From assembly GCF_002854065.1 (NCBI RefSeq), contig NZ_CP024147.1: DNA of 64,000 bases, one strand, 5' to 3'. Below, piece by piece: positions 26,774 through 64,000 of this stretch. Every line of letters starts with the position of its first letter. Position 1 is the stretch's first letter. The stretch comes from Escherichia coli. GTDB lineage: Bacteria; Pseudomonadota; Gammaproteobacteria; Enterobacterales; Enterobacteriaceae. The notes beneath the pieces are model-generated. The model had not been told where the DNA came from, searched no databases, and saw nothing but the letters and a program-made list of their open reading frames with translations. The position numbers and the translations under genes were made by a program.

Positions 26774-26965
26774 CTATGAACGCCATCACCATTTTCCCCT
26801 CGATTATAAAACTTGAGTTATTCAGTAGTCTCCCCTCTTGCAACTCACACCCAAAACTGCCTAACGAAAAGTTATTAATTTTCAATCATATTGCTATCAG
26901 GATTTACATTTTTTCGCTGTGCTAGAAAGGGCGCATTTATGTTAGCTCGTTCAGGGAAGGTAAGC

Positions 26966-34969
<8,004 letters not shown>

Positions 34970-40529: not shown

Positions 40530-40649
40530 TTATATTTTAAAGAAATCTGTCTTTATGGCAGATTTCTTTAATCTCATATAATCCTTATAAAAAATATAAT
40601 GTTTAACTCGTCATATTGCTTATAAAAAATCCCCGGTAATGACTCCAAC

Positions 40650-41153
40650 TTATTGATAGTGTTTTATGTTCAGATAATGCCCGATGACTTTGTCATGCAG
40701 CTCCACCGATTTTGAGAACGACAGCGACTTCCGTCCCAGCCGTGCCAGGTGCTGCCTCAGATTCAGGTTATGCCGCTCAATTCGCTGCGTATATCGCTTG
40801 CTGATTACGTGCAGCTTTCCCTTCAGGCGGGATTCATACAGCGGCCAGCCATCCGTCATCCATATCACCACGTCAAAGGGTGACAGCAGGCTCATAAGAC
40901 GCCCCAGCGTCGCCATAGTGCGTTCACCGAATACGTGCGCAACAACCGTCTTCCGGAGCCTGTCATACGCGTAAAACAGCCAGCGCTGGCGCGATTTAGC
41001 CCCGACGTATCCCCACTGTTCGTCCATTTCCGCGCAGACGATGACGTCACTGCCCGGCTGTATGCGCGAGGTTACCGACTGCGGCCTGAGTTTTTTAAAT
41101 GGCGGAAAATCGTGTTGAGGCCAACGCCCATAATGCGGGCGGTTGCCCGGCAT
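40650..41153 (-). CDS. insB: IS1 InsB' (expressed as InsAB' transposase by -1 frameshift at the A6C motif)
   Basis: 167 aa ORF recognised as IS1 InsB; an AAAAAAC slippery site (reverse strand) lies in the insA/insB overlap near 41090. Confidence 0.9.
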
Positions 41154-41347
41154 CCAACGCCATTCATGGCCATATCAATGATTTTCTGGTGCGTACCGGG
41201 TTGAGAAGCGGTGTAAGTGAACTGCAGTTGCCATGTTTTACGGCAGTGAGAGCAGAGATAGCGCTGATGTCCGGCAGTGCTTTTGCCGTTACGCACCACC
41301 CCGTCAGTAGCTGAACAGGAGGGACAGCTGATAGAAACAGAAGCCAC
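41072..41347 (-). CDS. insA: IS1 InsA
   Basis: 91 aa ORF ([30 protein letters not shown]…) recognised as IS1 InsA. Confidence 0.9.
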
Positions 41348-41663
41348 TGGAGCACCTCAAAAACACCATCATACACTAAATCAGTAAGTTGGCAGCATCA
41401 CCAAAATCCCCGTTCTCAGAGAAATAATATTTATTAAAATGGCAGGTCTTCTTTTTCTGATTACCGAAGACAAAGTGGCAATTACGTATAGTTTCCCGAT
41501 AAAGACACGACAGCAACATCCCGCATAAGGCATTGTTCTCTTTATCTTTGTACGGTACTTCATGGAACAGAGATTTTGACCTTGCGAATCGTGATGTCTG
41601 TTGGGGGCAATTTGCTCACTGAAGCGTGAGACTCGATTAAACGCACGAAACACAGAAATCAAA

Positions 41664-54159: not shown

Positions 54160-55332
54160 TCAGGCCTTATGGTGGAAATAATCACTCAGGCGGGAAAACA
54201 TGCCGCCTTCCCCGACAGATTCCAGGGTAACCAGCGGCCAGTGCGCCACCTGTTTATCACGGTCGTAAAGTTCAATTTCCCCTACCCGCTGATGGGCGCT
54301 AATTGGCGCGGTGAGCTCTTTACCATCAAGGGTATATTTGGCTTTGATATGTGGAATTTCGGCTTTCGGTAGCACCATCCAGAACTCTTGTTCCGTTCCC
54401 AGGTCGATATTTTCTTTATCGCCATACCAGATGCGTTCCGTTCCGACCTTTTTCCCACGGTGCAAAATTTGCACCGTAGTAAAGTTTTGTTGCCCCCAAC
54501 GCAGTAATTTTCTTGCCTCTTCCTCACGACCTTTTGCACTGTCAGCCCCCATTACCACTGCAATGAGACGACGCTGCCCATCTACAGCCGAAGCAATGAG
54601 ATTAAACCCGGCACCAGAAGTATGACCCGTTTTCAGGCCGTCAACATTCATGGTTTTATCCCACAACAACCCGTTACGGTTTTGCTGGGTGATACCGTTC
54701 CAGGTGAGACTTTTCTCACTGTACATATGATAAAACTCGGGCTCGCCGTGGATGATAGCGCGAGAAAGCACAGCTAAATCATAAGCCGAGCTATGCTGGC
54801 CAGGTGCATCCAGACCATGCACTGTTTCAAAATGCGTATCCTTGAGATGCAGCTTCTCGGCATAGTTGTTCATCATTTCAACAAACTGCCGTTGCCCACC
54901 GGCAATATAGTCAGCCAGAGCAACACAAGCGTCATTTCCGGAATCCACAATTAAACCACGGCTTAAATCACGTACCGATACGCGATCGCCCTCTTTCAAA
55001 AACATCAGTGAAGAACCGACAAACACCGGATTATCTTTCGCCCACGCATCGCGCCCCACGGTGACAATATCGTCTGGCGTAATGCGATGACTATCGATAG
55101 CGCGATCCACGACATAACCCGTCATCAGCTTTGTCAGGCTGGCGGGATTGCGCTGTTGATGCTCATTACCCGCGGTGAGGATCTGTCCGGTGGTGTAATC
55201 CATCAGTACCCAGGACCCGGCTTGAATCTGTGGAGGCTGAGGTGAAAAAGGAATGTTTTCCGCCGCAAAACCAGACGATAAGTTAAAAACGAACAAAGAA
55301 GCAGCAATAATAAGACGGCGTTTCAACAGCAA
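54160..55332 (-). CDS. dacD: D-alanyl-D-alanine carboxypeptidase DacD (PBP6b)
   Basis: 390 aa with signal peptide and S11 peptidase motifs (SxxK: ASLTK; SGN). Confidence 0.9.
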   Translation of the reverse strand: MLLKRRLIIAASLFVFNLSSGFAAENIPFSPQPPQIQAGSWVLMDYTTGQILTAGNEHQQRNPASLTKLMTGYVVDRAIDSHRITPDDIVTVGRDAWAKDNPVFVGSSLMFLKEGDRVSVRDLSRGLIVDSGNDACVALADYIAGGQRQFVEMMNNYAEKLHLKDTHFETVHGLDAPGQHSSAYDLAVLSRAIIHGEPEFYHMYSEKSLTWNGITQQNRNGLLWDKTMNVDGLKTGHTSGAGFNLIASAVDGQRRLIAVVMGADSAKGREEEARKLLRWGQQNFTTVQILHRGKKVGTERIWYGDKENIDLGTEQEFWMVLPKAEIPHIKAKYTLDGKELTAPISAHQRVGEIELYDRDKQVAHWPLVTLESVGEGGMFSRLSDYFHHKA

Positions 55333-56045
55333 ACCCTCAGGAGTTTCAAATAGCTGTTCTTTTTACGGAAATACTTATGAACTGGCTGGAATAAAGTGCA
55401 AGAAAATGTGACTACCCTAGCATTTTTATCTGACATGATCTGTTGCCACTCGCTGCCAAATTGTGGCGCTAAAGCTGATTAGCACGGTGATATTTGATAC
55501 TCTGGCAGACAGCAGAAATAACGGATTTAACCTAATGATGAATGACGGTAAGCAACAATCTACCTTTTTGTTTCACGATTACGCGCAACACCCCTGAGAA
55601 CCGCCATGAATAAGGGTTTCATGATTTGTGATTTTAGTTTGGTACGCAATTTGGTACACAACACAATTTTCACTTCAGCGGGTAGTCATCAAACTCACCA
55701 TAACGAGCATCGTTGATGATGTATGTGATCACCACAAATATCACATCTGGACTAGTTCCGTCTTCATGCGCAGGTATCTGTTCACGCCTCCCTTTCTGCA
55801 AATCCTAAAGATGAGATTTTGGGGTTTTGGGATATCTTTTTATCCTCAGTTCTCTATCCATTCTACAAAGCAGTAATGAACCATCACTATGTGATAGTGA
55901 GGCATCCGCTACATTAAGCGCAGAGAAATGATGCAGTGGTGGTCGGACTGGATTGATGAAAAGGTGTGATCGGTTAGCGCAAGACGAATCACCACCCTCG
56001 CCAGTTTTGAGTTGTTTTGCGCTAATTTTTTACCCCACCTCTGCC

Positions 56046-56076
56046 CCATCAAAAGAAAACCCGCTCTAGCGGGTTC
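56046..56076 (-). terminator. Terminator hairpin immediately downstream of the acyltransferase gene
   Basis: On the minus strand, AACCCGCTAGAGCGGGTT hairpin followed by TTCTTTTG, right after the stop at 56082. Confidence 0.5.
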
Positions 56077-56081
56077 ATGTC

Positions 56082-57152
56082 TCAGGCCTCTTTGCCCTTC
56101 TCTATCGCTGAGGGCTTGTCAGGAAGCAATGCGCTTATACGTCCCTTAAGGTACTTGTACATTCTGACGTCGATGAATGCTGCGTATAAATACGCTAGCA
56201 CTATCGAGACAGCAATCATTTTTACCGCCCCCATAAATGGATCTCCCTCAACAATACCGGTAATCATCACAGGGAAATGGAGAAGGTACAGAGGGAAGCT
56301 GATAAACCCTAAAAACTGGACTGGTGCAGAGTAAAGGAACCGTTTAACCAGGGACTCATCATTCATGTAATCGACAGTTAGCAGGGGAAGAAATGCCACC
56401 ATGTAGAAATAATCCATCCTGTTGGTATGCGAAGGTTGAGCATAGAGCCCGGCAAAGCATACAAACAGACACATAGCCAAAAAAACATTCTTTTGAGGTA
56501 GTTTAGTGAAACTCTCGTACCATTTTAATTTTATGATCGAGTACATACCCGATCCCATCAAAAGACATGATGATGCAAAAACAAAATTGTACATCCCGAA
56601 AAGCTCTGGACTACCGAGCCCTCTGGCAGAAACAACAGCCAGATAAATAAATGCCAAAATAGAAATACATAACCTTGAAAGCGGCCCCATTCTCAAGAAC
56701 AGAACTGGAATCAACATGGACGCCCAAAATTCTATGCTGACACTCCACGAAGGTTCATTTATCAAATTGAATGATAATGGGGTAGACCCATGTATAAATG
56801 CTAAATTCGCTACCCATGTCCTGATACTAAATACGTAATCACCTGGCACATAACCACCATTAAGGCTATTTACGTAGTAAATGATTACCATTATCACTGA
56901 TGATATAAAGGTAAGAGGCCACAGTCTTGCCAGTCTATTCAAAAAATATGACGGGATAGACGCCCCATTTCTTACTGAGTGGGTAAGCACAAATCCCGAT
57001 ATGATGAAAAAATATGCAACAGCCAAGTGAGGGCCGTTGAATGGCCCATCATTTTTCCAACCAGTAACAGCATTGATGGCGTGATTTAGGAGCACTGCGC
57101 ATGCAAAAAGGCCGCGCAAACCATCAACAGCATAGAAGCGTTTAATTTCCAT
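56082..57152 (-). CDS. Acyltransferase family 3 integral membrane protein (OafA/Oac-like; candidate surface-polysaccharide O-acetyltransferase)
   Basis: 356 aa, about 10 transmembrane segments, N-terminal AVDGLRG…H motif typical of acyltransferase_3; lies downstream of tail-fibre genes where phage conversion genes commonly sit. Confidence 0.7.
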   Translation of the reverse strand: MEIKRFYAVDGLRGLFACAVLLNHAINAVTGWKNDGPFNGPHLAVAYFFIISGFVLTHSVRNGASIPSYFLNRLARLWPLTFISSVIMVIIYYVNSLNGGYVPGDYVFSIRTWVANLAFIHGSTPLSFNLINEPSWSVSIEFWASMLIPVLFLRMGPLSRLCISILAFIYLAVVSARGLGSPELFGMYNFVFASSCLLMGSGMYSIIKLKWYESFTKLPQKNVFLAMCLFVCFAGLYAQPSHTNRMDYFYMVAFLPLLTVDYMNDESLVKRFLYSAPVQFLGFISFPLYLLHFPVMITGIVEGDPFMGAVKMIAVSIVLAYLYAAFIDVRMYKYLKGRISALLPDKPSAIEKGKEA

Positions 57153-57271
57153 AACAATTTATTTAAAAAAAGAAAAATTATACTAGAAATATATCATCAA
57201 CATCTATGCCATTGATGATTAAGTGATGGTTGTCACGGTTTTGTGTTTCTGGCTGGAATGCTGGCAGTGCT

Positions 57272-57460
57272 TTACTCGCTTGACTCAGGATCGGTGAATA
57301 CTCCATCTTCATAAATCCATCCAATTCTGCATGGTATTCCGTCTATTTTAACAACCTGATAATCATCAAAAATATGCCCCTCACCATCCCATATAACAAT
57401 ATTTACAACTATTCCATCTGTAATTAATGCATATCTCATGCAAACTCCTCCACAAGACAA
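57272..57460 (-). CDS. Hypothetical small protein downstream of the tail fibre (possible tail-fibre-associated protein)
   Basis: 62 aa ORF overlapping the 3' end of the tail-fibre gene by 25 bp; no recognisable family. Confidence 0.3.
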
Positions 57461-58362
57461 ATACCATCAGCACCTTCACCACCATAAAAACGCGTGGAGA
57501 AGACCTGCGTGTCATATGCGCCAGCGCCGCCACCGCCAGGGACTAATGCTTTCGCAATTCTCGGTGAATATACAGTACACTGCCCCGCTCTTCGGCTGCC
57601 ACCCCAAAAGCTTGAACCGCCGTACCCATTAAGGAACCTAGTATTATTTTGGCCATCTCCGCCATCTCCGCCGGCTAGATTTACATCACCACCAGACCCG
57701 GCAACTCCAACGCCGCCTGATGCATATACAGTGGAAGCAGTGGACGGGTTTCCGCCTGTGGCAACCATCCCACTAAATGTTGAGTTACCGCCTTTTGTTG
57801 CCTCAGTTCCGCCAGCACCGATAACCACGGCAAAGTTTGTGATGTCAGCAATATTGAACCATTTGATACCTGTAGCGCCTGCAGCCCCCCCAGCACCGGA
57901 AAAGTTATCGGTTGGGGAACCACTATTAAAAGCGCCACCTCCGCCACCACCCCCTCCCGTTAGAGTTACTTTGATGCGCTTCGTCAGCGGGTTTAGCGTT
58001 ACTGTTTTTGATGAGGTGATCCACTGCTCGGCAATCTTCCTACCTACGTATCCGTTGGTATCTCCCAAATCAAGGTTTGCGAGAGCCGTTTTCACCGTGC
58101 CATCCGATTTGATATCGCCAAACGGATTCTTGCGGCTTAACAGCAGAGCACGAAGCGCGGTAAGCAACTGGTCGTGCCGCGCCTTCTCCAGACTGGCACC
58201 AGATGCCTCAACAACGCTACAAAGTTCTTCCTGCAACATGTCAAAGTAGTCATCATCCAGATCGGTGGCAGGCGTGCCAGTCTGGGGGTTACCACGGGTA
58301 AAACCGTTCTTACCCGCGCCGAACTTATCCTTCTGCGCGGTTTTCGTGTCTATACGATGCAT
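57436..58362 (-). CDS. Phage tail fibre protein (Gly-rich)
   Basis: 308 aa; conserved phage-fibre-like N-terminus then Gly-rich repeats including GGGGGGGG, at the fibre position of the module. Confidence 0.65.
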
Positions 58363-58365
58363 GGA

Positions 58366-58950
58366 TTACTCCGGATATTTAAAAATTACGTAGGTATGCG
58401 ACGGGCAGAGTTTGTTAAGCACACACTCGACAACGGTGTCGCCCCAGATACGCAGTGCGGAATCACAGGGATCGCCACATGTCATCCAGGTGGTGTTGGT
58501 GGTGGTTGGCATGTTGACATGCCAGTAATACCGCCATTCCGGCGCATTCACCGCGTCAGTACAGGCCGATGAGCAGGTGAACGTGCTTTTGTCGTATCGC
58601 GTGATGGTGGCATCTGGTCTGCCCAGGGCAGCAAGCTGTGCAAGATAAAAATCCTCGTTGATGCCGCCCGCCAGGTTAACCTTCGCATCCAGCCGTTGCT
58701 GACGCTGGCGAAGGGTCTGCGTTCCCGCCGGAATACATTCATCCGGCAGACCGCACAGACGCTCCCAGCGGTTTATCAGTTCAGTGGTGGTGCGCGGATC
58801 CAGCTCCCGCATCAGGGCATCCGCACGCTGATGAACACGGGTTAATGACGGTGCCGCACCGGCAATCGCCGGATCGCTGGCTGACCACGCCGGACCGGGC
58901 GGCAACAGTGCCGATAACAGGCGGATGTAATCATCGTTTGTCACGTCCAT
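58366..58950 (-). CDS. Phage tail protein, YmfQ / Mu gp48-like (DUF2313)
   Basis: 194 aa ([22 protein letters not shown]…), positioned between the baseplate J gene and the fibre gene. Confidence 0.6.
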
Positions 58951-59999
58951 GAAATCGTCCCCAGTACCGCCAGTTCGTTTTTCGCAATGGAGATATTGTC
59001 CACCGGTGCAAGCAACTGATGGCTGTATTCCCCGTTCGCACCGGAAATCGCCTCACTGATACGCGACACCTTCAGTTCTCCCTGCGGATAACCATCACGC
59101 AGCAGGAACGAACGCAACTCCGCGGTGATGGCAGCCCGTATTTCCGGTGTATCCGGCGTCACGCGGATATGAAAATCCACCGTATGTGCCACCGGCCTGA
59201 ACACATACAAGTCAGAACCTGCCACCGGGGCCAGTGGCCCGATATGTTGTATTGCCGCCGTTTCCGTTGATTCTTCCGGAATGGGATTAATCAGGTCACT
59301 GCTGGCAATCATCACACCGACAGTTCCCGTTCCCATCCAGTGACGGTATGTCCATGCGCGGGTAATGCCGGGCACTTCTTTAGCCCAGACGACATAGTCC
59401 CCGTCAGCCCCGCCCTGCGGCGTCCAGTAATACCGCTCAATGACGCGGGCGCGCCACGTTTCCAGATCTTCAGTATCGAATCCGCCAGTCAGGGTATCTG
59501 CAACACCGGAAGACGGCAGACCATTCACCGGCGTGACTAGGATTAATGCCGTACCGTCGTCAGCGTTACCGACCGCGCCTGCATTTGAGCAAGTGATCGG
59601 CACACGCAGGACACCACCGGAGCTGGTTGCATCGGCAGTTGCCGTGTACTGAACCAGGTCATCGCGCTGAATCACGCTCCCGGCAGTCACCTTCAGGCCA
59701 TCGCTGACACCTTCCCAGCGCATATACCCGCTGGCAGCCGTGGCCCCCTTGCGCGGACACCGTTTCATCGCAGCATGTCGCGCCAGCCAGGACTCATCGC
59801 ACAGGTCAGGCAGCATATTCATTGCCAGATAATCGATGTACCCGTAGACCGTATGCAGCGCCGCCGCATACACCTTTGCCCGCACGTCTTCATCCATGCG
59901 CCGGAGCGTGTTGCTGACGTCCAGCCTGGCGAATAAATCGTTACGGAGCATACTGATATTTTCTGCCAGCGTCGGGCGCTGAAATTCACTGTCCGCCAT
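58941..59999 (-). CDS. Baseplate J-like protein (Mu gp47-like)
   Basis: 352 aa with baseplate_J family features; overlaps neighbouring genes. Confidence 0.7.
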
Positions 60000-60414
60000 G
60001 CGTTATCGCACTCCACAGATCATCAAAAGAAATCATTACCGGTCCGTCACGACGCCAGAGAGTGATACTGTTACCCAGTTCATTAATCCCGGTACGGCGG
60101 ATATCCAGATCAATACGGGACACCACGCCGTCATCAATCATCCATTGCAGGCATTCGCGGATATATCCCCTTACCGTCTGCACCAGCTGATTGGTCAGTT
60201 TGCTGCGCTGAAGCAGCCACAGTCGGGAGCCGTAACGGTCATTCTGTACCGCAGGCCAGGTATCCCCCCACCATCCCATCGGGACGTCGGCGTTGTCATC
60301 AGGCTCCGCCCGCCGCCAGGTAAACAGGGAAATCACCACGGCGCGGGTCAGCGGATCCAGCGGTGCGCTGGCGCAGGTGCGTTTACCGTTCACCGTCAGC
60401 CACAGTTCCATCAT
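59986..60414 (-). CDS. Phage GP46-family baseplate protein (Mu gp46-like)
   Basis: 142 aa, position and size as for Mu gp46. Confidence 0.55.
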   Translation of the reverse strand: MMELWLTVNGKRTCASAPLDPLTRAVVISLFTWRRAEPDDNADVPMGWWGDTWPAVQNDRYGSRLWLLQRSKLTNQLVQTVRGYIRECLQWMIDDGVVSRIDLDIRRTGINELGNSITLWRRDGPVMISFDDLWSAITHGGQ

Positions 60415-60959
60415 GCCTCCATCGCTTTATCAGGTTTGTCGGTGTTACTGCCCTGACCGTTCTCTCTGTGACGATGCCCGTTATAGGCAAGCCGCATCGC
60501 TGACATGGTGGTGCCGCCGGAGTCGCACAGGTCTTTCACCTGTCCGGTCACTTCCAGGTCCATTTCAAAACGTGCTTTAGGTGAATTGCGAAACGTGATC
60601 GTTTTACCTGCACCGTCCACCACGATCCCCTCCCGGGTCAGCGTCACGGACTGCCCCTGATCGTCATAGACAGCCACCTCACCCGTCTGCAGCCCTTTCA
60701 GGCGGTAGCGCCGGTCCGACACCGTAACAACCACCGCATGAGAACGGTCGCCATCCGGAAACAACACCACCGCTTCCGCACCGCTGTTTGCCCTTGCGGT
60801 AAAACCGTAGGGTTCAAGATGTTCAACCCCGGCTTTGGGTTCACCGGCAATCAGGGACACATCCACGGTCTGACATTTCGTGGCGGCACTGATGCTTTTC
60901 ACCACGGCCCGCCCAATCAGGCCGAGGAGTTGTCGCTGCATGGCTTCAATCGTCCTCAT
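60411..60959 (-). CDS. Baseplate assembly protein V / spike (Mu gp45-like)
   Basis: 182 aa; gpV-type OB-fold N-terminus; 4-bp overlap with the downstream gene. Confidence 0.6.
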   Translation of the reverse strand: MRTIEAMQRQLLGLIGRAVVKSISAATKCQTVDVSLIAGEPKAGVEHLEPYGFTARANSGAEAVVLFPDGDRSHAVVVTVSDRRYRLKGLQTGEVAVYDDQGQSVTLTREGIVVDGAGKTITFRNSPKARFEMDLEVTGQVKDLCDSGGTTMSAMRLAYNGHRHRENGQGSNTDKPDKAMEA

Positions 60960-62038
60960 CAGAACGGGTCCTCCTGTACTCTGGCTTTTTTCTTTTTCCG
61001 CGCGCCGGGGGCTTCGGGTTCAGGCAGATAAGCATCAGGTGGGCCGACACGGATTTCCGTCAGGGTGCCGTTCTGGTCCTGAGTAAACGTGACTTCCGAA
61101 ACAAGCAGTTCGGTATTGTCGAAACCACAGACCGGATCAAAGACAATCACCCGCTGGTTGGGCTGCCACAGCGTACCGTTACACTGTCGCCAGCCCTGCA
61201 CCACATAGGTGGTTTCATCCGTCCGCGCCGCCCGTTGTCTGGCTTCAAAGTCCGCACGGGCAATACAGCCTGCCCCCGTAGCCTGCCCTGTCTGCCTGAT
61301 ATACATCGGACGGTAACGGGCAATAAATGCGTCCTCTGTGCGGGCCCGCAGCGCGGTGGTGGTGGCCTCACCGAAATCATCGTCGTTTCCGGCACGCTGC
61401 CCCGCCACCTGGTAAACAGAAAACCGCTCCCGGATACTCTTCTCCGTATCGCAGGAAAGGATGTTTTCCCCGAGTACCAGCGCAGTATGTGCCCGAGTTG
61501 AGCCAATACCGCCAATCACCAGCCTGCCGTGCGGGTCGTCGTAAGCCAGTGCCTGCTGCTGACCGAGTATTTTGTTGATTACCTCAATCACCGTTTCACC
61601 GTGATCAGGCTGAACATCAGGAATAACACCCGACGGCGCACCGCTGTTCACCACCTCAATGCCGAAAGGCGCAGCAAGCGCCTGCGCAATCTGCACCAGC
61701 GAGCGTCCGTTAAACTGTGTCGGTTCGGCTGCACAGTCAATCAGGTCAGCCGTCAGACTACGTCCGACAATACCGGTGCTGACCGAACGGGAATCGTAAC
61801 GAACGGGCGTCGCCTCCACCCAGCCGGTGATCACCAGCTCATCACCAATCAGCACTTCCACTTTTGAACCGTTTTTAATGCGCGGCTGAAGCGTGGTGAT
61901 ACCCTCATCTCCCGGCCACTGGCGGGTGATCTCCACACTGAAATCCCGCGCCAGCCGTTCAATACCGGCACCGATGCGCACCGATGTCCAGCCATTCCAC
62001 TCCCGGCCATTTACCCGTAGCGTGACATTGTCGTTCAT
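60959..62038 (-). CDS. Mu P-like tail/baseplate hub protein (Mu gp44-like)
   Basis: 359 aa (MNDNVTLRVNGREWNGW…), position and length as for Mu P. Confidence 0.6.
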   Translation of the reverse strand: MNDNVTLRVNGREWNGWTSVRIGAGIERLARDFSVEITRQWPGDEGITTLQPRIKNGSKVEVLIGDELVITGWVEATPVRYDSRSVSTGIVGRSLTADLIDCAAEPTQFNGRSLVQIAQALAAPFGIEVVNSGAPSGVIPDVQPDHGETVIEVINKILGQQQALAYDDPHGRLVIGGIGSTRAHTALVLGENILSCDTEKSIRERFSVYQVAGQRAGNDDDFGEATTTALRARTEDAFIARYRPMYIRQTGQATGAGCIARADFEARQRAARTDETTYVVQGWRQCNGTLWQPNQRVIVFDPVCGFDNTELLVSEVTFTQDQNGTLTEIRVGPPDAYLPEPEAPGARKKKKARVQEDPF

Positions 62039-63375
62039 TGCACTGGCACCTTCAGAGGGATCACCGGCACAAAGCCGGGATGCGTAATGGCATTACGCCG
62101 GATAATGTCCGCGTCACGCGCCGCGTTATCAAACCAGGTCGCCGCCAGCACCAGCGCGGGTAAAACCTCATCCGGTGTGCGCTGAATGATCCGTGCAGAC
62201 TGTTCAAGGCGCGTGTTGATATCCGCATTCAGATCTGCTTTCACCCGGCGCAGCGCCAGAAACAGCGCATCACTGGTTGTACGGGACAACTCCTTATCAA
62301 TTGCCGTATTCAGTGTGTCGCGAATGTCAGTCAGTTCTTCCCACGTCGGCAGGTCAACCGTGTTTTTCACCGCCGGTGCATTGTTCAGTGCCGGATGCGT
62401 GACGGAAGGCCAGCCAGTGCTCTGCGCGGGTGTTGTTGCCTGCCCCACTGCGGCATTCTGCATCACCGCGGAAGTTGTTGGCGCAGGCAATCGGGTGACG
62501 GCATACGCCGCTTCGCTGATTGCGGTCGTACGAAGGGTGCTGGCAACCACGTTACGCTGCTGCGTCGCCGTGGCGGTGGTTTTACTGTCCGTTTTCCAGA
62601 CGCCGCGCGGTTGCAGATCGCTGCCGAGGCTGACACCGGAAAGCGTTTTGATCATGGTGACCAGGTCGCTGGCGTTACCATAAAGGCGTTTCCCGGTACG
62701 CCACATTTTCTGCACCTGCTCAACGAAATTTTTGCCTGACGATGGCGGCGGCAGAAGTACCGAGATATCCCCCTGCAACAGCCTGGCGGCATCCGATACG
62801 GCAGAATCCACCACTTTCATCGCATCAGAAACATACCCCAGCATTATGCTGGCATTACCGATAACGTCGTTCTGCACGAAATCCGCAACACCATCGATAC
62901 TGAAACCGCTGAAGCTGTCACTGATGCAGTCATCCAGTGCAGAACAGGATGACATCAGCGTCTGCGCCGTCGCCGCACCTGATGTGGGGTAAGAGAGTTC
63001 TCCTGCTTCGACAAACTTCAGGTCAAAGCGGACAATACGCCCTTCACTTTTCGATGTGCTGACCCGAACTTCCCCGTCAACACAGACTTTCAGCTCACCA
63101 TATGTCGGGTGGACAAGCGTGCCTGGACCGGGTTTATTCAGCGCGTCAATCAGGCGATCGCGCTGGTCAAAGCAGTCATCTCCCACCACATAAGCTGTGA
63201 TGGACGGGCGGAAAGTGATTTTCCCCAGGTCTTCGGTATAGGGTTTGTCGCGGTTTGGGTATTCATGCGTTTCAACCCGACGTCCTACCGGGGCCCCTTC
63301 ATCTTCTACCTTGAACGGAACGCCGCGAAACGACGCTTCAACCAGTCTGTCTTTCCACGCCATTGTCTGCACCAA
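62035..63375 (-). CDS. DNA circulation protein N-like tail protein (Mu gp43-like)
   Basis: About 440 aa with conserved N-terminal …ASFRGVPFKVE…; start is ATG at 63363 or upstream TTG/GTG at 63375/63372. Confidence 0.6.
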   Translation of the reverse strand: MVQTMAWKDRLVEASFRGVPFKVEDEGAPVGRRVETHEYPNRDKPYTEDLGKITFRPSITAYVVGDDCFDQRDRLIDALNKPGPGTLVHPTYGELKVCVDGEVRVSTSKSEGRIVRFDLKFVEAGELSYPTSGAATAQTLMSSCSALDDCISDSFSGFSIDGVADFVQNDVIGNASIMLGYVSDAMKVVDSAVSDAARLLQGDISVLLPPPSSGKNFVEQVQKMWRTGKRLYGNASDLVTMIKTLSGVSLGSDLQPRGVWKTDSKTTATATQQRNVVASTLRTTAISEAAYAVTRLPAPTTSAVMQNAAVGQATTPAQSTGWPSVTHPALNNAPAVKNTVDLPTWEELTDIRDTLNTAIDKELSRTTSDALFLALRRVKADLNADINTRLEQSARIIQRTPDEVLPALVLAATWFDNAARDADIIRRNAITHPGFVPVIPLKVPVQ

Positions 63376-63465
63376 TATGATTTGTTATAAGCTACTCTGT
63401 TTCAGACGCTTCTTTCGAAGCGCCAGAGAACATTTACCTTTAAGGAGAGGTATAAATGGAAATGT

Positions 63466-63523
63466 TTTTGCCGTTAATACTGGGTTTGTTGCTAGCCGTT
63501 TTCATAGGACGGTGGGCTTGGTA
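63466..63523 (+). pseudogene. 5' fragment of a plus-strand gene interrupted by IS1 (hydrophobic N-terminus MEMFLPLILGLLLAVFIGRWAW)
   Basis: Strong SD AAGGAGAGG 6 nt upstream of the ATG at 63466; the frame runs into the IS1 end where TAA is created at the junction. Confidence 0.35.
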
Positions 63524-64000
63524 ATGACTCCAACTTATTGATAGTGTTTTATGTTCAGATAATGCCCGATGACTTTGTCATGCAGCTCCACCGATTTTGA
63601 GAACGACAGCGACTTCCGTCCCAGCCGTGCCAGGTGCTGCCTCAGATTCAGGTTATGCCGCTCAATTCGCTGCGTATATCGCTTGCTGATTACGTGCAGC
63701 TTTCCCTTCAGGCGGGATTCATACAGCGGCCAGCCATCCGTCATCCATATCACCACGTCAAAGGGTGACAGCAGGCTCATAAGACGCCCCAGCGTCGCCA
63801 TAGTGCGTTCACCGAATACGTGCGCAACAACCGTCTTCCGGAGCCTGTCATACGCATAAAACAGCCAGCGCTGGCGCGATTTAGCCCCGACATAGCCCCA
63901 CTGTTCGTCCATTTCCGCGCAGACGATGACGTCACTGCCCGGCTGTATGCGCGAGGTTACCGACTGCGGCCTGAGTTTTTTAAGTGACGTAAAATCGTGT
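63521..64000 (-). mobile_element. IS1 insertion sequence (partial; continues past the window end), same orientation as the IS1 at 40635
   Basis: Starts with GGTAATGACTCCAACTTATTGAT and is near-identical to 40635-41114 over the visible 480 bp; encodes the InsB' C-terminal portion (63535-63912 ORF). Confidence 0.9.

Follow-up and report, generated by a model that had tools for sequence, protein, structure and literature searches.

What is the small open reading frame that faces away from the tail genes of a prophage and runs straight into an IS1 element, and was it that element that gave the neighbouring tail module its abrupt start? These questions arise at one edge of a 64,000-nucleotide stretch of Escherichia coli DNA (contig NZ_CP024147.1; the window, in what follows), which ends inside the IS1. 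The prophage in the window is of the SfV/SfI type; it has an HK97-like head and a Mu-like contractile tail, and it is integrated next to dacD. Its tail genes have the order T - N (DNA_circ_N) - P (gp44) - gp45 - gp46 - gp47 (J) - gp48, with T, the tape-measure gene, lying beyond the window, and the Pfam families of these genes are recorded on identical genes in the loci L009-L018. The tail module shares about 97% nucleotide identity with those of SfI, SfV, SfII, SfIV and SKA5 over 5.3 kb. Taken as a whole, the evidence makes it very likely that the small reading frame is the 5' remnant of a cargo gene, or moron, in the prophage, inactivated by IS1.

A reading frame that ends in IS1

The features of the boundary, in the order in which they lie in the window, are these:

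62035-63363, minus strand: N-like tail gene ('DNA circularization protein', 442 aa, Pfam DNA_circ_N), from the list of open reading frames
63364-63455, plus strand: leader and putative promoter region of the cargo cassette, 92 bp, between the ATG of N and the plus-strand ATG at 63456
63407-63422, no strand assigned: inverted repeat CGCTTC-TTTC-GAAGCG, read from the sequence
63442-63450, plus strand: Shine-Dalgarno sequence AAGGAGAGG, five bases 5' of the ATG, read from the sequence
63456-63524, plus strand: chimeric 22-codon open reading frame encoding MEMFLPLILGLLLAVFIGRWAW, from the sequence and the list of open reading frames
63456-63519, plus strand: native remnant, codons 1-21 and the first base of codon 22 of a gene for a 145-aa protein
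63511-63519: the 9 bp GGTGGGCTT directly to the left of the IS1 end, a duplicate of which is expected on the far side if the event was a simple transposition
63520-64000, minus strand: IS1 with its right-end inverted repeat inward, cut by the end of the window; 27-nt exact end match to the IS1 at 40635

On the near side of the cargo slot the tail genes begin with this N-like gene. It starts at an ATG complementary to 63361-63363, and an in-frame TTG at 63375 would lengthen the protein by four residues. The annotation of the protein comes from RefSeq, on identical or near-identical copies, and from Pfam PF07157 on the identical protein.

An earlier note on this DNA had described a strong Shine-Dalgarno sequence ahead of a small opposite-strand reading frame with its ATG at 63466, upstream of N across a 90-bp gap. 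The reading frame is real and the Shine-Dalgarno sequence is present where we list it, with a GAGG core that is invariant in five aligned orthologous loci; the start codon, however, is at 63456 and the gap is 92 bp. The native part of the frame is identical to the 5' end of the genes for WP_061350224.1 and covers most of the first transmembrane helix of their product (residues 5-24 form helix 1 in an AF2 model). At 63520 the right-end inverted repeat of IS1, GGTAATGACTCCAACTTATTGATAG, begins, and the frame does run into it and take its stop codon from it, as had been proposed: the last Trp codon (TGG, 63519-63521) is made of one native base and two IS1 bases, and the TAA at 63522-63524 is wholly IS1 sequence. 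Codon 22 of the intact gene is Tyr (TAT).

The transposase frames of this IS1 lie on the minus strand, in the direction of the tail genes, with an InsB-like open reading frame at 63535-63912 (minus strand). Over 63520-64000 the element differs at 6 of 481 positions from the complete IS1 at 40635-41402. That complete copy has the same orientation as the partial one, is bounded by a 9-bp target duplication, AAAATCCCC, and sits in the chromosomal yeeO/amn region. The chromosomal part of the window also holds a 2692-aa open reading frame (26891-34969, plus strand), which, going by the K-12 map, is presumably a yeeJ-type inverse-autotransporter adhesin. The site of the partial IS1 lies just 5' of an A-rich run, the next 40 bp being 65% AT, and an A/T-rich neighbourhood of this kind fits the target preference of IS1.

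Uninterrupted alleles and selection on the intact gene

The 144 bp upstream of IS1 are found in 5 of 5426 complete E. coli genomes (megablast; only uninterrupted alleles), and the N gene in about 1090 of them. All five have an intact 145-aa open reading frame, encoding WP_061350224.1 or a two-residue variant, on the opposite strand between N and T, and in intact relatives the stop codon of T lies 14 bp past that of the 145-aa frame. Among the matches listed for the identical N protein, ten contigs out of ten carry the intact gene beside N with the same 21 first codons; prophages with this identical N protein occupy at least four different chromosomal sites. The exact 145-aa protein occurs on 292 contigs, with close variants in Citrobacter, and is named 'hypothetical protein' in every source.

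One draft assembly, GCA_031685045.1 (L010), carries this prophage too, integrated at the same site beside dacD. Against positions 55001-63519 of the window it shows 2 mismatches in 8519 (99.98% identity), and it runs through the insertion point into the intact 145-aa gene, where the window has IS1. Its sequence at that point is GGTGGGCTT followed directly by ATAAAAAAGAAAAG..., and all 16 relatives that were checked have GGTGGGCTT followed by ATAAAAAAG, one of them (L019) with an extra A in the run. L010 is effectively the pre-insertion allele, and because of this we accept the suggestion that IS1 has disrupted a plus-strand gene: the intact 145-aa frame spans the site in the relatives, L010 among them. 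The expectation that N follows the tape-measure gene holds for SfI and YD786, where the two are separated by a gap of 45-60 bp; in the prophage lineage of the window a native cargo gene on the opposite strand comes between them. On this comparison of alleles, the abrupt start of the tail module is the native cargo slot plus an IS1 insertion, and was not created by IS1 itself.

Orthologues with 63-70% identity, from Buttiauxella izardii and several metagenome contigs, occupy the same T-N slot in more diverged tails; without exception they are on the opposite strand and encode 145 aa. When these orthologues are compared, synonymous sites are saturated (pS 0.63-0.87) and pN is 0.16-0.23, and by these values the 145-aa gene is a real one under strong purifying selection. 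It is disrupted by a frameshift or by IS1 in several strains. An A6 run at codons 22-24 lies directly 3' of the IS1 site of the window, and a run of A7 in its place, which puts the gene out of frame, is present in at least two independent assemblies (L019:5967-5975, GCA_004745385.1; protein P0013); the A7 alleles could be recurrent slippage or sequencing error. Other insertion sequences were seen at the tape-measure gene: in strain 102651 an IS3-family element abuts it, with non-phage genes beyond (L001:6533-9464), and in strain ET5 an IS66-family element lies inside it (L002:6715-10764).

A variable cargo slot between T and N

Homology between the window and SfV, SfI, SfII and SfIV ends exactly at the ATG of N, window position 63363. 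At this junction the intact relatives have a cassette of about 545 bp, low in GC and oriented on the opposite strand, that is made up of the 92-bp leader, the 438-bp open reading frame and a hairpin overlapping the stop codon of T. Its GC content is about 40% (0.395-0.43), against about 54% in the flanks (N 0.52-0.64; just inside T about 0.55). A moron is defined as an extra transcription unit in a phage genome (PMC3594210), and features of the cassette fit that definition: it is found in some close relatives and is absent from others, at a precise junction of conserved genes, and its base composition deviates from that of its surroundings. By these features the 145-aa gene fits the description of a moron, carried in a slot of SfV/SfI-type tails whose content varies; the possession of a promoter and a terminator of its own is weakly supported.

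Other members of this phage group have nothing in the slot, or something else:

L008:3465-3524 and L023:7919-7963 (SfI and YD786, in no stated order): slot empty, T-N gap of 45-60 bp
L007:3591-4043, opposite strand: 150-aa membrane-anchored OB-fold (tRNA_anti-like) protein, in PE15 and about seven close relatives
L024:7994-8506, same direction as the tail genes: signal-peptide protein of 170 aa, in phage SKA5

The OB-fold protein, WP_032281336.1, matches PF12869 with E = 7e-19. This cargo gene has been hit independently by IS1 in CX12 (L022:2645-3430) and also in CX08, with an 8-9 bp target duplication, GGATTTTT, and there too the site lies in an AT-rich stretch that encodes an N-terminal hydrophobic segment. 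Elsewhere in the prophage of the window, at the end next to dacD, is a 356-aa Acyl_transf_3 open reading frame (56082-57152, minus strand; Pfam hit recorded in L010), which looks like lysogenic-conversion cargo of the O-antigen acetylase type.

The hairpin of the 145-aa cassette, AATGGGAGG-N5-CCTCCCATT, spans the stop codon of T and carries that codon in its loop (L001:6523-6545), and in L001 its T-run is on the strand of the tail genes, not on that of the cargo gene. A similar GC-rich hairpin lies over the T stop codon in the OB-fold cassette (L007:4050-4072), and GGGAGGG/CCCTCCC is common to both cassettes; phages in which the slot is empty have a different hairpin and T-run between T and N. 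The hairpins at the T-N junction look like terminators within the late operon, which are presumably overridden by antitermination. That the cargo cassette is an independent transcription unit is plausible.

The leader of the cassette

The leader has a -10-like TATAAG at 63386-63391 and a possible -35 element, TTGTCT, at 63363-63368; an alternative match from the scan is TTTCCA-18-TATGAT at 63352-63381. A promoter scan of the identical sequence in L001 returned one weak sigma-70-like site, which did not rise above shuffled sequences. Across four diverged orthologous loci a block of the type TATA(A/G/T)(G/T) is the only well-aligned motif in the leader. From these elements we infer that the leader has promoter activity. 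It has no match in Rfam.

The inverted repeat at 63407-63422 had been called an imperfect palindrome. The repeat is there, but its 6-bp arms are perfect, and they extend imperfectly to 11 nt. On a rough estimate, about 0.1 stems of 6 bp are expected by chance in 90 bp, and the palindrome is not demonstrably above that level; the region is rich in indels and is not conserved in the alignment of orthologous loci, and the fold of the leader RNA is modest (z = -2.0). Roles as an operator or a terminator were rejected as unsupported, given this lack of conservation, the lack of an Rfam match and the modest fold z-score. A second, longer inverted repeat is formed by 63429-63442 and 63453-63466 (14 nt, 86% complementary); its arms lie on either side of the Shine-Dalgarno sequence, the truncated gene's start codon is among the paired bases, and the repeat could be a translational control hairpin. 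We assign a function to neither of the two repeats.

The intact protein and its family

In the AF2 model of the 145-aa product (pLDDT 89), helices at residues 5-24 and 28-54 are followed by a C-terminal α2β4 domain of about 90 residues. The two transmembrane helices are joined by a basic loop, YKKEKTKPRKI, which by the positive-inside rule would be cytoplasmic, with the C-terminal domain in the periplasm. The hydrophobic helices, the basic loop and the pLDDT of the model predict a location in the inner membrane, as would be expected of an exclusion protein.

The C-terminal domain carries a sharply conserved motif, SMNDPDS...FRGKNxFGG. A profile search found it in 5172 representative clusters (50% identity), where it stands C-terminal either to another anchor, signal or transmembrane, or to a zinc ribbon and the transmembrane segment behind it. 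It corresponds to PHROG 3403, a family without known function: residues 75-135 of the query match it with E = 2.6e-7, and each of the 24 aligned homologues matches as well, the best with an E-value of 2e-27. Two cysteines, C78 and C98, occur together in all 11 enterobacterial orthologues and are both absent from all 13 distant homologues; the pair is compatible with a periplasmic disulfide.

Searches of Pfam, NCBIfam and PADLOC gave no significant family, the sub-threshold noise coming mostly from the transmembrane helices. One PADLOC defence candidate, PDC-M38B, was rejected (6 of 24 homologues matched; best E-value 0.0044). The domain profile had no match in a sequence search of the PDB, Foldseek with the full model returned nothing from the PDB below E = 0.05, and comparison of folds gave only generic NTF2-like, cystatin-like and VirB8-like matches (Z <= 6.6). 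Matches in BFVD are unnamed phage lipoproteins or membrane proteins. Two homologues in other phages occupy lysogeny or cargo positions: that of Aeromonas phage LPM4 has the repressor gene on one side and the integrase gene on the other, and that of Vibrio phage VHML follows gene D.

What the gene may do

The reading that we prefer, tentatively, is that the intact protein serves in superinfection exclusion. The gene would be expressed in the lysogen from its own promoter, like other envelope-protein morons in tail operons, and its product would act at the inner membrane or in the periplasm against incoming phages, excluding them at the step of DNA entry; this function would then have been lost in the strain of the window. 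We favour exclusion because there is a precedent in HK97 gp15, because the slot holds three types of envelope-targeted cargo and because the gene is dispensable. Gene 15 of HK97 (Juhala et al. 2000; Cumby et al. 2012; both as summarised in PMC3594210) is a moron that adjoins the tape-measure gene within the tail operon, and it encodes a small inner-membrane protein that blocks entry of the phage genome (PMC3594210). The 145-aa protein has no similarity, in sequence or in structure, to characterised superinfection-exclusion proteins (e.g. HK97 gp15, T4 Imm, P22 SieA); since this test of homology to the known exclusion families failed, we say that it may work like them and not that it is a member of them.

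Other roles in the envelope or in host fitness are about equally likely. The locus may be built just as we describe, and the gene may yet encode a lysogenic-conversion protein that modifies the envelope or benefits the host, or an accessory of phage lysis or tail assembly; we regard this as a serious contender, if somewhat short of an even chance. The domain family is very large and lies mostly outside recognisable phage contexts (the 5172 clusters), the PADLOC matches are marginal (best E-value 0.0044), NTF2-like and cystatin-like folds serve many binding roles, and the same prophage has another surface-modifying cargo gene in the 356-aa Acyl_transf_3 frame. The part of this alternative that concerns virion assembly fares poorly: the gene is absent from most members of the family, including the plaque-forming SfI, SfV, SfII and SfIV, and a frameshift or IS1 has inactivated it in several strains. 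A bolder version of the exclusion reading is that the 145-aa protein is the first recognisable prophage member of a large unnamed family, that it represents a new kind of periplasmic or inner-membrane exclusion, and that the T-N junction is a slot for swappable envelope defences; we think this unlikely.

Simple insertion or rearrangement

Whatever the gene does, IS1 landed after its codon 21, giving the 22-codon frame whose last codon and stop come from the element, and the IS1 boundary is probably a simple insertion. In that case the window sequence would be continued by 287 more bases of IS1, ending ...GGCAGCATCACC, then by GGTGGGCTT and then by ATAAAAAAGAAAAGACCAAGCCC...; in terms of genes, GGTGGGCTT would be followed by ATAAAAAAGAAAAGACC..., by the remaining 374 bp of the cargo frame and by the tape-measure gene. 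T would be expected about 1.15 kb beyond 63519, because its stop codon lies so close past that of the cargo gene in the relatives.

There is a smaller, though real, chance that the boundary is instead the scar of an adjacent deletion, of an inversion or of IS1-IS1 recombination, and that the rest of the cargo gene, T and perhaps the head genes have been lost or relocated. The IS1 junction is absent from all of the collections searched: exact scans did not find the near-side junction in genome_contigs, viral_contigs or metagenome_contigs, megablast of the 5426 E. coli genomes returned uninterrupted alleles only, and the predicted far-side junction was not found in an exact scan of viral_contigs. 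A 113-aa product would be expected of the 3' fragment, and looking it up gave no IS1 junction but only the frameshift allele L019 and two contigs that begin at that ATG. The remainder of the 145-aa frame is nowhere else in the window, which contains at least two copies of IS1, and IS-mediated decay is common in this region of the prophage, having affected two of the five complete genomes in which the cargo gene is present. Rearrangement has to contend, however, with the 99.98% identity that the window keeps, as far as the junction itself, to an uninterrupted allele; this near-identity to L010 suggests that the event was very recent, and a single transposition is the simplest account of it. Moreover, the other IS1 of the window and the IS1 in the slot cargo of CX12 are both simple insertions with target duplications, and the insertion adjoins an A/T-rich run, in keeping with the preference of the element. 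A truncated homologue on a 4.6-Mb contig, P0014, was considered as an IS1 allele and rejected; neighbouring phage genes in that assembly are fragmented as well.

It is very improbable that the 22-codon frame is a functional gene for a small hydrophobic peptide in its own right, or a chance open reading frame: although its Shine-Dalgarno sequence, its ATG and the putative promoter are intact and a 22-residue membrane peptide could still be made, its stop codon belongs to IS1, the gene is 145 aa long and under purifying selection in every relative, the junction is in none of the collections searched, with no sign of an allele that has spread or been maintained, and chance is excluded by the orthologues, which show the frame to be the beginning of a conserved gene.

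Consequences for the prophage and its annotation

The 22-codon frame should be annotated as a pseudogene fragment rather than a gene. Because IS1 lies in the late operon between T and N, the prophage may be impaired, and in lytic growth the element may exert polarity on the N-P-baseplate genes. In the wider group of SfV/SfI-type serotype-converting phages, the T-N junction emerges as a variable slot that has received at least three unrelated small envelope proteins, and one of these draws attention to a widespread extracytoplasmic domain, lacking a Pfam model, that is a candidate for a part in phage exclusion. The case is otherwise one of ordinary prophage decay that will not surprise a phage biologist; the domain family and the variable T-N slot alone are mildly novel.

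Comparison with known systems

As in classical insertional inactivation by IS1, a terminal inverted repeat abuts a broken reading frame, an A/T-rich stretch lies alongside and a pre-insertion allele is available for comparison; the difference is that only one end of the IS1 is visible in the window. With the PHROG 3403 or SMNDPDS family the 145-aa protein shares a domain that lies C-terminal to a membrane anchor or signal sequence in every architecture seen, whereas the enterobacterial prophage clade is set apart from the wider family by its own two-helix anchor and its clade-specific cysteine pair.

The other cargo genes of the slot are a further close parallel. Like the 145-aa gene, the OB-fold and SKA5 genes lie between T and N, have their left boundary at the start codon of N and encode small envelope-targeted proteins, and the OB-fold gene is also on the opposite strand; the SKA5 gene, in contrast, has the opposite orientation to the 145-aa gene, and both proteins are unrelated to the 145-aa protein. 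The gp15 protein of HK97 is YebO-like and resembles the 145-aa protein neither in sequence nor in fold, the latter being predicted to consist of a two-helix anchor and an α2β4 periplasmic domain. The settings of the genes differ too: gene 15 belongs to a siphovirus tail, where it is flanked by the chaperone and tape-measure genes, and the 145-aa gene to a Mu-like contractile tail, where it sits between T and N on the opposite strand. What the two have in common is that each is extra DNA beside a tape-measure gene, deviating in base composition from its surroundings, dispensable, and encoding a small protein of the inner membrane, a location that is predicted in the case of the 145-aa product.
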